DNA of 64,000 nucleotides. Source: a virus. The number at the start of each line of letters is the position of its first letter. Position 1 is the stretch's first letter. Of the stretch, positions 24,931-38,976 are shown one piece after another. The position numbers were made by a program, and so were the translations under genes. Below the pieces are notes generated by a model. That model worked only from the letters and a program-made list of their open reading frames with translations. It had not been told where the DNA came from and did no database searches. Where the stretch lies: the IMG/VR virus record IMGVR_UViG_3300045988_162923; one strand, 5' to 3'.

Positions 24931-25497
24931 TTAAAGAAATGATTTACATTCCTCAACTTTATCTTTCATCTGTTGAATAATATCATCCAACAATACAGGG
25001 TATCCATCATGGGAATCAACACCTACATGATACATAAAAGGCATATCCTGATAAAAATTTGTAGTTTGATGGGTATGACCATAAAGATTAAGAGTCATTT
25101 GATGAAGGCTTTCTCTTTGAAGATTTCCTGTCATAGTGGGATAATGGCTCATATAAAAATAATATTTTCTATATTTTAAAGTAGTAGCATCACCAAGAAA
25201 TCCGATATTAGCATTTTGTTCATCCATATAAAGATTTACTCTAACATTAGTATCATGATTTCCTCGTACAAAATACTTATTGCCATTAAGCTGTTTAAGA
25301 CATTTAATACCTTCATCATTGTTACCAAGCATCAAATCTCCAAGAATATATACTGTGTCATCAGGCTGAACAAGAGAATTAAATTTCTTGATCTGAATTT
25401 CATTCATTTCTTCAACTGAAGAATAACCTCGGGCTTTCCAGACAAATTCTCTATCATGTCCGAAATGAAAATCACTTGTAAGCCAAATATTACTCAT
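24931..25497 (-). CDS. calcineurin-like metallophosphoesterase
   Basis: SDFHFGHD...GDLMLGNND...RGNHD motifs; immediately downstream of the PNK-like kinase. Confidence 0.7.
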   Translation of the reverse strand: MSNIWLTSDFHFGHDREFVWKARGYSSVEEMNEIQIKKFNSLVQPDDTVYILGDLMLGNNDEGIKCLKQLNGNKYFVRGNHDTNVRVNLYMDEQNANIGFLGDATTLKYRKYYFYMSHYPTMTGNLQRESLHQMTLNLYGHTHQTTNFYQDMPFMYHVGVDSHDGYPVLLDDIIQQMKDKVEECKSFL

Positions 25498-25515
25498 AAA
25501 TTAATCATCCCCTTT

Positions 25516-26076
25516 TTATACTTGAATTGGTTTCCCAATCCAAGTACAGTCATAATAGTTTCTTCTTTTTCCATCATTACTACACCAAAGAACATCTCTA
25601 TACTCATATTTTTCACCATGATCGGGAAGAACATAAGTATCATACATTCTTTTAATAGCAGCAGCAGGAACGTTTTCTAAACCGCTTCTCTGCTTATTAT
25701 ACTCATAACACTTTTTAAGAGAAGTAATCATACCAACACAAGTAATATCAATATCTTTTAAAAAGTCTGTTCCAAGAGCATCAAGAAGTTTATTTCGAGA
25801 ACGCTCATTTAAATGAGTAGCATCAGCAATTACAACATCATACTTTTCAAAGCTTTCTTTAATAGTTTTTACATATTCATTGAAAACTTCAGATTCATGT
25901 TCAAAGTAATTGATAGAAGAATTCTTTTTAAGAAAAGAAAAACGAATCTTATCTCTTGAAACAATGGTCCAAGACTTTTTGCTCCAATAAGGATCTTGCG
26001 TAAAATAAAAATTAGCAAAAGTACTTTTACCGGACGCCGGAGGTCCGCACATAATCCAAAGATCTTTCCGCTTCAT
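25516..26076 (-). CDS. polynucleotide 5'-kinase-like P-loop kinase (T4 Pnk kinase-domain-like)
   Basis: MCGPPASGKSTFA, SRDKIR, IADATHLNERSR and VPAAAIKRMYDTY parallel T4 Pnk GCPGSGKSTWA, NRDDYR, ISDTNLNPERR and VPIDVLRSMYKSM. Start ambiguous (26049-26130). Confidence 0.6.
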   Translation of the reverse strand: MKRKDLWIMCGPPASGKSTFANFYFTQDPYWSKKSWTIVSRDKIRFSFLKKNSSINYFEHESEVFNEYVKTIKESFEKYDVVIADATHLNERSRNKLLDALGTDFLKDIDITCVGMITSLKKCYEYNKQRSGLENVPAAAIKRMYDTYVLPDHGEKYEYRDVLWCSNDGKRRNYYDCTWIGKPIQV

Positions 26077-26290
26077 CTTTATACACTCCATTCTTAAAAT
26101 TTTCAAGAAATTCTTCAACATCTTCTTCATTCTTACACTCTACATGATTTACTTCCTCTTGGCAATAAATACAATAGAGTTTTTTACGATGGAATTTACT
26201 GTGCTGGAATCCAGATTTACGCTGAATAGGAATTCCTTTATGACCGCATTTCATACAATAGAATGAATGTTCCTCGAACATATTTATCAA
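26027..26290 (-). CDS. zinc-ribbon protein (87 aa)
   Basis: CMKCGH...CIYCQ motifs; ATG preceded by the conserved AAGAAAGGAATTGATAAAT leader. Confidence 0.4.
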   Translation of the reverse strand: MINMFEEHSFYCMKCGHKGIPIQRKSGFQHSKFHRKKLYCIYCQEEVNHVECKNEEDVEEFLENFKNGVYKDEAERSLDYVRTSGVR

Positions 26291-26345
26291 TTCCTTTCTT
26301 AACTTTCTATAAATATTATAATATATTTTTTATAAAAAATCAATT
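26290..26345 (-). promoter_or_regulatory. conserved promoter plus leader cassette (TTGATTTTTTATAAAAAATATATTATAATATTTATAGAAAGTTAAGAAAGGAAT)
   Basis: Member of a repeat family of 20 or more copies; -35 TTGAyT, 17-nt spacer, TGnTATAAT, then AGAAAGTTAAGAAAGGA leader/RBS about 10 nt before the ATG. Confidence 0.55.
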
Positions 26346-26552
26346 TTCTTTTTTTAATTCAGGATGCTGTTCAAGGTAAGCCGAATACTCGCGGTCCATT
26401 TCTTCCATAAAATCAAAATATGCTTGTTGGGCAATTTTTGTCTTTCGTCTTTTTAAAGCAGAACAATCTCTTCCACAATAATTTGCTCGACGACATTTGC
26501 CACATTCTCCTTCTAATTTCCATTGGTCAGAAATAGGAATATTTTTCTTCAT
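26340..26552 (-). CDS. small Cys-rich protein (70 aa)
   Basis: CGKCRRANYCGRDC. Confidence 0.3.
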   Translation of the reverse strand: MKKNIPISDQWKLEGECGKCRRANYCGRDCSALKRRKTKIAQQAYFDFMEEMDREYSAYLEQHPELKKEN

Positions 26553-37074: not shown

Positions 37075-37109
37075 TCAATACCAACCCCTATTTTTTTTAT
37101 TTATTTCTT

Positions 37110-37192
37110 ATCTCATTTTGTAAATATATTATATCATATTTTATTAAAAAAATCAAAAAAGAGGAATGAAATTAATCATTCCTCTTTTCTTT
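37110..37192 (-). promoter_or_regulatory. terminator hairpin plus conserved promoter cassette
   Basis: AAGAGGAATGA...TCATTCCTCTT hairpin then TTGATTTTTTTAATAAAATATGATATAATATATTTAC. Confidence 0.55.
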
Positions 37193-37928
37193 TTAGTTCA
37201 TAATCCCAAATTTCTTCAAGGTCAACAATAGAAGTGTATAACATTTCAACACCAGGCTTAATATATCGGTCAGCATGATAATGTCCAAATAACCATACTT
37301 CCCATTGAATATACTCTTTAAAAACATCTAACCAGTATTCCATTGTCTTATCAACAGAACTTTGAATTACACTTCTTAAGAATAAATCAGTAGGTTCCCA
37401 ACTTCTTGGGCAAGTATGAGTAAGAACAAAATCGTATTTACAGCCGTAAGTATATTTAGTAATATCAGCCATCTCTGTTAAAGTAAGCAATTCATCTTTG
37501 AACCATCCAGTCCAACTATCAGTATTTTCAGGTCTACCATCTAGCCTAAACCACTTATCAACAGAATATGCTCCACCAATTACTAAAGTAGAATGACCAT
37601 TAAATTTATATTCTTCGCCATCTCTAAGGTATTTAATGTTAGGAAATTCTTCTTCCATATAAACAAAATTATGAATATCCATATCAAAATATTCAGTCAT
37701 ATTAGGAATATTCTGCGGACGCTCTTCATGATTGCCGCGTACGCAATAAAAAATGTATCCAGAATCTTGCGCAAATTGCTTACGCTTTGTATCACTACGA
37801 TTTAAATAGAAATTAAAACCTACATCGCCCAAACAGATAAGCGCAGTTTCATTAGGAGGATAAAGATTTCTATCAATAGCATCCACTCGCTCTTGGATTC
37901 GTCCATGAATATCGCTAACCTGTGACAA
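37176..37928 (-). CDS. calcineurin-like metallophosphoesterase
   Basis: ICLGDVGFN...RGNHE. Confidence 0.65.
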   Translation of the reverse strand: MSQVSDIHGRIQERVDAIDRNLYPPNETALICLGDVGFNFYLNRSDTKRKQFAQDSGYIFYCVRGNHEERPQNIPNMTEYFDMDIHNFVYMEEEFPNIKYLRDGEEYKFNGHSTLVIGGAYSVDKWFRLDGRPENTDSWTGWFKDELLTLTEMADITKYTYGCKYDFVLTHTCPRSWEPTDLFLRSVIQSSVDKTMEYWLDVFKEYIQWEVWLFGHYHADRYIKPGVEMLYTSIVDLEEIWDYELKRKEE

Positions 37929-38148
37929 GCCAATGCTTAATCACAATAATCATCTCCTTTTATAAGATACTTGTTTCCAAGTAAATCATCAATTGTTATT
38001 AAAATTCTCCATTTCTTTCTTAACAGTATCCAATCCTTCAAAGATACTATTTAAAATAATTACTTGAGCGCCAACGCTTTTAAAATTTTCAATTAGCCAA
38101 TTTGCTAAATCAGGAAGCTTTGCTTCAATTGTATCAATATCTTCTTTA

Positions 38149-38976
38149 TTAATTGTTACTTCCATTTAATTCTTCCTCCATACTTTTTTTCATAACTTTA
38201 TATATAACATTATCTAAAAATTCATCAATTACAGGATTGCCTTTATTTTCAGTAGTTTCGCAAAATACATCTGCTACTCTAGTAATATTATCAATAGCAG
38301 TATTGGCTACAATTCGCGCAGTTTCAAGATCATAATATCCTTTTTTTACGTCAATTAAATAATCAGGTCTACGCGGATGTAAGCAATCTTTATAAGGTTC
38401 TCCATTAATATATCGTCCAATATATTCTTCAACTCGAAGCAAATGATGAAGTTGCTTAGGATCATAACCATACTTAGCTAAAATATCTACTTTACTAGGA
38501 TATTCATGTTCCATCGCATGATATTTTTCCATAGCAATGCCCTTCATAGATTTAACTGCTTGATATGGATTATAACGAGCAATTTCTTCTCTATGTTCAA
38601 TTAATTCTGCCCAATATTTTCCATAAATAGAATTAATGAAAAAATATGGAGTAAATAAAATTTCAAGAAAATTTAAATTTTGTTTGCGGAAACAGTTAAG
38701 CATAAGCCGCATATCTTTCCAGTCAGTATGACTATTATCTTCTCGAATATGAGTAGTAGAAATAGGCTGTTTATTTAAGACAATATCTTTAAAGCTTGGT
38801 AAAAGAACTGCCTTGGTATCAACATCGCTATCTTCATAATCAAGTCCATAATTTTGACTACCCTGAAGAAATACACCAACTACTTTATTTAATCCAAAAG
38901 TATCACGAGTTTCATCATAATGATTATAGACCTCTTCCATAATCCAAGAATCGGGATGAAAATTCATATATATCAC
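38149..38976 (-). CDS. Pol-beta-superfamily nucleotidyltransferase
   Basis: GSQNYGLDYEDSDVD (GS...D.D) NTase signature. Confidence 0.5.
   Translation of the reverse strand: MIYMNFHPDSWIMEEVYNHYDETRDTFGLNKVVGVFLQGSQNYGLDYEDSDVDTKAVLLPSFKDIVLNKQPISTTHIREDNSHTDWKDMRLMLNCFRKQNLNFLEILFTPYFFINSIYGKYWAELIEHREEIARYNPYQAVKSMKGIAMEKYHAMEHEYPSKVDILAKYGYDPKQLHHLLRVEEYIGRYINGEPYKDCLHPRRPDYLIDVKKGYYDLETARIVANTAIDNITRVADVFCETTENKGNPVIDEFLDNVIYKVMKKSMEEELNGSNN

Follow-up and report, generated by a model that had tools for sequence, protein, structure and literature searches.

A Putative RNA End-Healing and Sealing Gene Set Beside a Predicted NAD+ Reconstitution Operon in a TAG-Recoding Phage

To our knowledge, RNA repair by a phage is firmly established for T4 only, in which a kinase fused to a HAD phosphatase (Pnkp) and the ligase Rnl1, suited to loop breaks, form an antidote to the anticodon nuclease PrrC. 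The wider repertoire of RlaP nucleotidyltransferases, cREC proteins, Rnl5-type ligases and calcineurin or HD healing enzymes consists of comparative-genomics predictions, and a modular "syntax" of RNA repair was reportedly set out by Burroughs and Aravind in 2016. Here we describe a stretch of viral DNA of 64,000 nucleotides (IMG/VR record IMGVR_UViG_3300045988_162923, hereafter the window), in which positions 24931-38976 hold genes for a ligase, a kinase, three metallophosphoesterases (MPEs), an exonuclease and RlaP (Table 1). These genes are predicted to make up a modular phage kit for healing and sealing RNA ends, expressed early and forming part of a counter-defense island; we give this reading a probability of about 0.6. 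We favor it because the ligase is of Rnl5 type by sequence, profile and fold with invariant motifs, because the families matched by RlaP and cREC owe their definition to an RNA-repair context, and because the repair set persists in a relative (L005) that has no NAD+ genes at this place. An initial annotation had called the region an RNA-repair toolkit, a description supported by the ligase fold, the linkage with RlaP, the polynucleotide kinase (PNK) active site, the kinase-MPE pair and the fusions of the kinase with HD domains.

Among described systems, the RNA-repair sets of jumbo phages (PMC7824862) likewise combine an ATP-dependent RNA ligase, RlaP, a polynucleotide kinase, phosphoesterases and cREC with nearby tRNAs, and NAD+ systems occur alongside; calcineurin-like and HD phosphoesterases are found there, if rarely. 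The ligases of that survey are mostly Rnl1 or Rnl2, with rare divergent ones, whereas the window ligase is Rnl5-like. The window further differs from these sets in that kinase and phosphoesterase are separate genes, in having three phosphoesterases and in its recoding of TAG. It also encodes an SPFH protein, a major-vault-protein (MVP) homolog and a vWA protein; the words "vault" and "SPFH" are absent from the survey (PMC7824862).

Like the T4 enzymes, the window set is phage-encoded and probably early. In place of the kinase-HAD fusion and Rnl1 of T4 it has a lone kinase, MPEs and an Rnl5-type ligase, to which a nucleotidyltransferase and an exonuclease are added, and domain scans of the 24931-38976 region found no HAD domain, which sets it apart from an antidote of the T4 type. 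The bacterial systems Pnkp-Hen1 (Clostridium thermocellum) and Pnkp1-Rnl-Hen1 (Capnocytophaga, 4XRP) provide the closest solved relative of the kinase, and one of the MPEs (MPE247) matches the phosphatase region of bacterial Pnkp. In the Pnkp1 system, too, the ligase is a separate protein. The single-chain Pnkp, made of kinase, lambda-type MPE and Rnl4 ligase, is not what the window encodes: against the TIGR04075 cutoff of 750 bits the kinase scores 23 and MPE247 22 bits, the parts are separate genes, the ligase is Rnl5 rather than Rnl4, and the MPE adjacent to the kinase is of a different type. No scanned open reading frame (ORF) of the window matched Hen1, and the only methylase in the block is of the Eco57I type.

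Nothing in the components or their associations goes beyond what comparative genomics has described for large phages, and the locus is a new example rather than a new kind of system. Its value lies in being a clean, testable example with unusual companions. It offers a compact, conserved and abundant test set whose parts are separable and which occurs in natural variants with and without the NAD+ module.

The ligase and the genes that travel with it

The ligase consists of an N-terminal OB domain followed by a nucleotidyltransferase domain and has no C-terminal domain. The initial annotation had taken it for an RNA ligase with the motif KxHGxN. The enzyme class is upheld by the fold and by linkage to RlaP in 75 of 87 loci, but motif I reads KMHGTS, with K186 as the nucleophile and a histidine (KxHG) where most ligases have aspartate. 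A single-sequence search of the PDB gave no match, and the Pfam model RNA_ligase scores 23.6 bits, just under its threshold. The NCBIfam model TIGR02306, that of the Deinococcus DraRnl family, matches residues 8-192 (E = 4.7e-11), and PHROG 968 ("RNA ligase") scores 218 bits. An alignment was built from 59 diverse homologs (50%-identity representatives, 33-62% identity). As a family profile against the PDB it matches NgrRnl (5COT) over residues 8-177 (E = 8.4e-8), a span that covers the OB domain and motif I. The residues K186, G189, R193, G227, E267, E408, G409, K424 and K426 are invariant in the 59 homologs and coincide with the ligase motifs, and thus the motifs of a covalent nucleotidyltransferase are present.

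The AlphaFold model obtained with the 59-sequence alignment has a predicted local distance difference test score (pLDDT) of 90.7; with 22 close homologs the score was 43.6. In a Foldseek search with this model the top 13 matches are all NgrRnl (E about 1e-17, best 3e-18; TM-score 0.68-0.70, normalized by target length), followed by T4 Rnl2 (1e-7), REL1 and Rnl3, with DNA ligases appearing at E > 0.03 only. Because the TIGR02306 match, the NgrRnl profile match and the fold match agree, the window ligase as modeled is not a DNA ligase but an RNA ligase of Rnl5 type whose nucleotidyltransferase domain is enlarged. Domain order, motifs and fold all correspond to DraRnl and NgrRnl, from which it differs by an identity of about 15% and by a nucleotidyltransferase domain that is about 115 amino acids larger than that of NgrRnl. 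The family is large, with at least 8000 database matches at E <= 1e-5 and at least 2188 clusters at 50% identity, and is found in 417 phage records, where every annotated member is called an RNA ligase.

Four longer homologs (P0123, P0130, P0134 and P0140, about 790-813 amino acids) carry an insertion of about 350 amino acids directly after the motif I region, so that the window ligase aligns with them as residues 1-200 and then 179-450. The pattern points to an intein or a homing-endonuclease insertion at the active site.

Characterized Rnl5 ligases seal duplex nicks that have an RNA 3'-OH strand (PMC4408790, PMC5397189), and nick sealing by the window ligase is predicted from its membership in this group. 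Since Rnl5 enzymes have been proposed to act in DNA repair with RNA patches (PMC4408790, PMC5397189), the set could be an accessory of DNA repair and replication, healing DNA that host nucleases have broken to leave 5'-OH/3'-phosphate ends, and sealing RNA-patched nicks. The ability of Rnl5 to join 3'-OH RNA to 5'-PO4 DNA at nicks and the radiation sensitivity of a DraRnl knockout (PMC5397189, PMC4408790) fit such a role; PNK-type enzymes act on DNA too, and DNA is often the substrate of DEDDh exonucleases. However, the phage has a replication module elsewhere with an ATP-dependent DNA ligase of its own, so the ligase described here is not needed for DNA sealing, and the RlaP and cREC families are defined by RNA-repair and NAD contexts. 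We therefore hold a DNA-repair role to be very unlikely.

The neighborhood of the ligase was followed with the window proteins in 87 loci, of which 80 are viral loci with a ligase 61-95% identical to that of the window and seven are other loci; genes were scored as co-located when they lay within 10 kb of the ligase (Table 1). MPE188 directly follows the kinase in 33 of 38 loci, even though the kinases are 33-42% identical. RlaP followed by MPE250 is a recurrent pair in many loci, and the exonuclease is followed by the ligase in L021-L023, L059, L067 and L083-L086. In L005, whose ligase is 75% identical, the NAD block is absent and the repair genes are kept in order. Because relatives conserve both the co-location and the order of these genes, their linkage is more than chance. 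One could still suppose that there is no system at all and that unrelated accessory genes came to lie together by accident in a large phage genome, given that they are spread over four or five transcription units with other functions interleaved and that large phages carry many such enzymes. Pairs and co-location are nevertheless kept despite rearrangements and protein identities of 25-60%, and this explanation deserves hardly any credence.

Table 1. Features of the window and of related loci, with the number of the 87 loci in which a homolog lies within 10 kb of the ligase.
Feature	Position	Strand	Assignment and remarks	Near ligase (of 87)
TAG-carrying example regions	512-2326; 11962-13167; 21308-22714; 58685-60937			
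Replication module	5-18 kb		DNA ligase (11962-13167), RNase H, gyrase, helicase	
SPFH protein	23495-24883	minus	SPFH/Band-7, flotillin-like; Band_7 E 3e-18, Flot E 4e-6	25
MPE188	24931-25497	minus	YfcE/aq_1665-type metallophosphoesterase, 188 aa; Metallophos_2	42
Kinase	25516-26076	minus	PNK-clade P-loop kinase, presumed 5'-OH polynucleotide kinase; AAA_33, PHROG 505	44
Zn87	26027-26290	minus	zinc-ribbon protein, 87 aa; CxxC...CxxC; overlaps kinase start	30
MPE247	26567-27310	minus	lambda-phosphatase/Pnkp-type metallophosphoesterase; PDB 1G5B match	25
Plus-strand gene	27674-28402	plus	242 aa; nine in-frame TAGs; repeated CxC...CGC zinc motifs; DUF2726-like nuclease end	
NADAR	28394-28816	minus		26
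NadE	28820-29620	minus		
Macro	29622-30116	minus	directly downstream of Namat	
Namat	30079-31593	minus		8
Adps candidate	31692-32528	minus	PRPP-synthetase-like, 278 aa; directly upstream of Namat	
Nicotinamidase-like	32529-33059	minus		
Winged-helix protein	33063-33335	minus	small	
HslV-like protein	33441-33941	minus	166 aa; PHROG 1040	
RNA ligase	34785-36155	minus	ATP-dependent, Rnl5 type; sequence, profile, fold	
Exonuclease	36175-37074	minus	DEDDh 3'-5' exonuclease; immediately upstream of ligase	18
MPE250	37176-37928	minus	third metallophosphoesterase; Metallophos E 3.4e-11, PHROG 1649	33
RlaP	38149-38976	minus	RNA-ligase-associated Pol-beta nucleotidyltransferase; PF10127, GS...D-x-D motif	75
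cREC	39441-39740	minus	cyclic-phosphate-processing receiver-like protein; PF20274	28
MVP homolog	41618-44104	minus	828 aa; MVP_shoulder E 2e-19, Vault_3 E 4.5e-8	33
vWA protein	44407-45939	minus	DUF2828/DUF7788; vWA families	50
DNA methylase	46072-47250	minus	Eco57I-type N6; one in-frame TAG	
SLH protein	48274-49380	minus	S-layer-homology domain	
tRNAs	49.4-52.3 kb		Cys(GCA) 49445-49522, Ala(UGC), Lys(UUU) 51722-51797, Gly(UCC); ARAGORN and Rfam agree	
Promoter motif sites	6826, 9390, 13230, 23375, 26343, 27355, 31654, 33398, 37156, 41567, 46049, 52811, 53015, 54780	minus		
Terminators	23489, 27379, 33432, 37190, 41601			
HD-fused kinases in relatives	L026:13200-14100; L053:15502-16400; L007:15283-16278			

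The putative healing enzymes and their possible targets

The kinase and the phosphoesterase beside it are both present on the minus strand where the initial annotation had placed them, and so are two further MPEs, a DEDD exonuclease and a Pol-beta nucleotidyltransferase. The kinase matches Pfam AAA_33 (E = 6e-16) and PHROG 505, "polynucleotide kinase" (69 bits). By sequence, the Pnkp1 kinase 4XRP is the one solved structure related to it (E = 0.004), and its segments GPPASGKST, SRDKIR and DATH align with that kinase; these are conserved in 36 homologs. By these motifs it fits the PNK-clade pattern of a P-loop (GxxxxGK[ST]), a catalytic R-D-x-x-R aspartate and a Walker-B-like DxT, and its polynucleotide specificity is putative. 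Polynucleotides or tRNA are the substrates of all the families that it matches (PHROG PNK, PSTK, KTI12 and, weakly, bacterial Pnkp). The ORF extends to a possible upstream start at 26130, and the gene call in relatives corresponds to the 186-amino-acid form. The overlapping zinc-ribbon gene Zn87, which matched no Pfam family, is 56-71% identical across loci, compared with 33-42% for the kinase.

MPE188 starts 18 nucleotides downstream of the kinase and is its presumed partner in 3'-end healing. It matches Metallophos_2 (35.7 bits), PHROG 547 (152 bits) and aq_1665 (PDB 1XM7, E = 1e-4), and it conserves GD, GNHD and GHxH as metal-binding motifs. The arrangement had been described as a split Pnkp, which holds insofar as a conserved kinase-phosphoesterase pair follows the same logic; MPE188 itself, however, lacks the GDxxDRG motif of the lambda-phosphatase/Pnkp set and is most similar to aq_1665 and YfcE. 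The MPE of Pnkp and lambda type is instead MPE247, two small zinc-ribbon genes upstream of the pair, which carries DxHG, GDxxDRG, GNHE, H and GH in conserved form. MPE247 matches lambda phosphatase (1G5B, E = 1e-8) and, weakly, 4J6O, which we take to be the phosphatase domain of CthPnkp. It also matches positions 217-270 of the Pnkp model TIGR04075 and positions 178-308, the phosphatase segment, of PHROG 8238, a family of kinase-phosphatase-ligase fusions. MPE250 shares a transcription unit with RlaP, and metal-binding motifs are retained in all three MPEs.

In L026, L053 and Bacillus phage Thrax1, orthologs of the kinase carry a fused HD phosphohydrolase and lie directly 3' of RlaP or the ligase. 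The fusions indicate an exchange of the phosphoesterase partner in which the logic of kinase plus phosphoesterase was kept, and this swap is our best support for an end-healing role. The second domain of the Thrax1 "polynucleotide kinase" was considered as a counterpart of MPE188 and rejected, as it shows no similarity and is the HD domain. Among the 120 closest homologs of MPE188 no kinase-phosphoesterase fusion was found, only Cys-rich C-terminal extensions; in P0333, P0334, P0372 and P0308 the extension ends in ...RDPxDGGxYG.

RlaP conserves the motif GS..YG....SDxD and matches PF10127 at 24.0 bits, a family also matched by 10 of 15 RlaP homologs. The exonuclease matches RNase_T (E = 2e-16) and the Rv2179c-like 3'-5' exoribonucleases (E = 1.3e-5), and has a C-terminal extension without assigned function; a generic DEDDh model was the sole match to the PADLOC defense models. 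The cREC gene, which had escaped the initial annotation, belongs to the RlaP transcription unit just outside 24931-38976. It scores 73 bits on PF20274 (cutoff 27), and its DD and DxD motifs are conserved. Both the RlaP and the cREC family were defined through association with RNA ligases, and cREC also through association with NAD and ADP-ribose (ADPr) enzymes (PMC7824862).

In the pathway that we propose, a host RNase, typically a metal-independent one, would cut an RNA of the translation apparatus and leave a 2',3'-cyclic phosphate or 3'-phosphate and a 5'-OH end. cREC and/or the MPEs would open the cyclic phosphate and take off the 3' phosphate, and the kinase would phosphorylate the 5'-OH. 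If nucleotides had been lost, the exonuclease would trim the 3' end and RlaP would refill it. The ligase would then seal the 3'-OH/5'-PO4 break in a base-paired context. The NAD+ genes between the repair units may independently rebuild NAD+ destroyed by host NADase defenses, and the SPFH, MVP and vWA proteins might, speculatively, scaffold these activities.

A narrower role, proposed by the initial annotation, is that of an antidote resembling the one of T4, directed at anticodon nucleases like PrrC or RloC, which would mend anticodon loops with the help of phage tRNAs. The window does encode tRNA-Lys(UUU), the target of PrrC in E. coli, and several relatives have tRNA arrays no more than 10 kb from the ligase. 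A combination of exonuclease and RlaP would fit RloC-type excision of the wobble base (PMC7824862), and the ligase has an OB domain with weak similarity to those that bind tRNA (Foldseek E 0.02-0.06). The ligase families tailored to loop breaks are Rnl1 and Rnl4 (PMC4408790), however, whereas the window ligase is a nick-sealing Rnl5. Furthermore, the tRNA-Leu that had been reported together with tRNA-Lys was found in the window by neither ARAGORN nor Rfam, and the four tRNAs are not part of the cluster but lie 10-13 kb beyond it, behind unrelated genes. A role confined to tRNAs cut by anticodon nucleases thus appears unlikely.

Several points weigh against the broader end-healing and sealing kit as well. 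The activities of the repair proteins and of their close homologs are predictions. The kinase scores higher on the PSTK model (41 bits) than on the Pnkp model (23 bits), and RlaP exceeds the PF10127 cutoff of 23 by 1 bit. The Rnl5 ligases seal nicks in duplexes, and a role that has been proposed for them is DNA repair with RNA patches (PMC4408790, PMC5397189). The genes are distributed over several transcription units along 15 kb and interleaved with NAD and ADPr enzymes, and the MPEs and cREC could equally process ADPr derivatives or nucleotide signals. Finally, many of the 87 loci belong to related phages, so that the counts partly reflect shared ancestry.

An NAD+ operon in a TAG-poor block

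About one third of 24931-38976 is filled by a block of NAD+ genes (28394-33059) that the initial annotation had also passed over. Their identities come from Pfam assignments and, for Namat, from a match in the structure database. Namat matches 9W5X/9W5W at E = 8e-116, compared with 1e-40 for ordinary NAMPT; these structures are of Namat from phage SpbetaL1, which in NARP1 attaches nicotinamide to ADPR-pyrophosphate (PMC12774641). The gene just upstream matches ordinary phosphoribosyl pyrophosphate (PRPP) synthetases weakly (E = 3e-12) and is a candidate for Adps. The gene just downstream is a candidate for Adpp by position and family, as is that of Adps, since Macro genes in NARP1 operons encode this ADPR-1''-phosphate phosphatase (bioRxiv 10.64898/2026.01.28.702374). 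With NARP1 and NARP1-AP the block shares a Namat homolog flanked by a PRPP-synthetase-like and a Macro gene; it differs by its additional nicotinamidase-like, NadE and NADAR genes and by its embedding in the repair cluster. By its gene content, the block is a NARP1-type NAD+ reconstitution operon, a known counter-defense pathway separate from RNA repair. In Bacillus phage Thrax1 the NAD+ pathway and repair genes likewise lie near each other.

Alternatively, the kinase, the phosphoesterases and cREC could serve the NAD+ operon, processing by-products and NAD-derived or nucleotide signals (ADPr-phosphates, cyclic ADP-ribose, cyclic oligonucleotides), with only the ligase and RlaP acting on RNA. 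The genes lie on either side of a NARP1-type block that includes Macro and NADAR, cREC has been proposed to act on cyclic ADPr or 2',3'-cyclic ends (PMC7824862), phage phosphatases feed NARP1 (bioRxiv 10.64898/2026.01.28.702374), and MPE188 is of the YfcE phosphodiesterase type. On the other hand, the kinase-MPE188 pair, MPE247 and MPE250 remain with the ligase and RlaP in loci where the NAD block is absent (L005, L033). The kinase gene's place in L026, L053 and Thrax1, where it immediately follows RlaP or the ligase, and the polynucleotide- or tRNA-acting nature of its nearest families (PNK, PSTK, KTI12) also speak against this division of labor, which we judge unlikely.

The end-healing and sealing kit was taken above to be expressed early, and this rests on the codon usage and promoters of the region. 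The phage has a genome of about 200 kb and is known from metagenomes only. Metagenome contigs about 200 kb long (among them ENA ERZ28622403 scaffold_10, 200,327 bp, and NCBI GCA_900521825.1) encode a ligase identical in every residue to that of the window, and a megablast search of the region against 50,697 phage records gave no match, so that none of the cultured phages among these is closely related in DNA sequence. The window is AT-rich (G+C about 30%), and all its convincing genes lie on the minus strand except the one at 27674-28402. TAG is a sense codon in this phage, as in-frame TAGs occur in genes such as those of the ATP-dependent DNA ligase and a PIN-PhoH protein. One TAG falls within the Walker B motif of PIN-PhoH (DEA*N where DEAQN is usual), and the codon probably means glutamine. 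When TAA and TGA alone are read as stops, the flanks yield long ORFs with up to 15 TAGs each, including a RecJ-like protein, a primase, a radical-SAM enzyme and fiber-like proteins. Relatives encode tRNAs with a CUA anticodon.

The distribution of TAG is strongly uneven: 5 of 7791 codons between 22.8 and 49.4 kb are TAG, versus 114 of 10942 in the flanks (P = 6e-21, Fisher's test). This near-TAG-free block of about 26 kb contains the repair genes. A promoter motif TTGATT-N17-TATAAT with an extended -10 element, of host type and sigma-70-like, has 14 matches on the minus strand of the window against 0.33 expected; the conserved promoter-like motif reads TTGATTTTT...ATGnTATAAT. The promoters mostly sit right 3' of terminator hairpins, and their repetition divides the minus strand of 23347-41567 into four or five co-directional transcription units. 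Because the block is TAG-poor and carries repeated host-type promoters, it is probably read by the host machinery early in infection. The repair kit, the NARP1-type operon and the MVP homolog thus occur together in a TAG-free, probably early block of a TAG-recoding phage, and the locus lends itself to the question of how phages of this sort get through the time before recoding sets in. Should the kit act on tRNA, even the suppressor tRNA that TAG-recoding phages need could come under its protection, although this is speculation.

Vault- and flotillin-related companions and other genes

The SPFH gene is the last of the kinase operon, and in each of the 25 loci where it is co-located with the ligase it comes after the kinase and MPE188. 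Its product is a possible scaffold. Band-7 proteins adjoining RtcB were reportedly noted by Burroughs and Aravind (cited in bioRxiv 10.1101/312249). A Band-7 protein is what the window shares with the Band-7/b7a-tRNA/RtcB system; it differs in having no RtcB and no tRNA-like RNA in the cluster.

The MVP homolog is full-length and collinear with rat MVP (4HL8, E = 2e-16) through repeats, shoulder and cap helix. A literature search found no report of phage MVP homologs. The MVP and vWA genes lie upstream of the RlaP unit, and both recur near the ligase. Eukaryotic vaults contain the NADase TEP1 and bind ADP-ribose at the MVP shoulder (bioRxiv 10.64898/2026.05.01.722283). The window resembles the eukaryotic vault (MVP, TEP1, PARP4, vault RNA) in its collinear MVP, the adjacent vWA protein and the nearby NAD and ADPr enzymes. 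It differs in that a particle is hypothetical here and in the partners found: no TROVE, PARP or TIR domain was detected near the MVP homolog, including TROVE in the adjoining vWA protein. Rfam at gathering and permissive thresholds returned only the four tRNAs of the window and no Y RNA, vault RNA or Band-7-associated tRNA-like RNA.

The MVP, vWA and SPFH proteins travel with the ligase (33, 50 and 25 of the 87 loci), and in L023, L024 and L050 the MVP gene directly precedes nicotinamidase-like and Adps-like genes. These associations lead us to suggest, with the odds well against it, that the three proteins form a vault- or flotillin-like assembly that organizes the repair and NAD+ enzymes, their physical association being putative; we consider such an assembly quite unlikely. 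If it existed, it would be a prokaryotic-virus counterpart of the vault that couples RNA repair with NAD+ and ADP-ribose metabolism during infection.

Two sets of candidate RNA partners were rejected. Strongly folding intergenic regions turned out to be terminators or promoter palindromes. Eight relatives (L010, L012, L016, L022-L025, L059) have a tRNA-Cys(GCA) gene 46-1079 nucleotides upstream of that for the vWA protein; in the window the distance is 3.5 kb, with the methylase and the SLH gene in between. It was considered as a special RNA but looks like an ordinary tRNA-Cys with encoded CCA.

Among the remaining genes, the plus-strand gene is probably a mobile endonuclease inserted between operons. 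The HslV-like and winged-helix genes stand between the ligase unit and the NAD block and are kept in closer relatives. Further upstream, the SLH-domain protein hints at an S-layer-bearing host.

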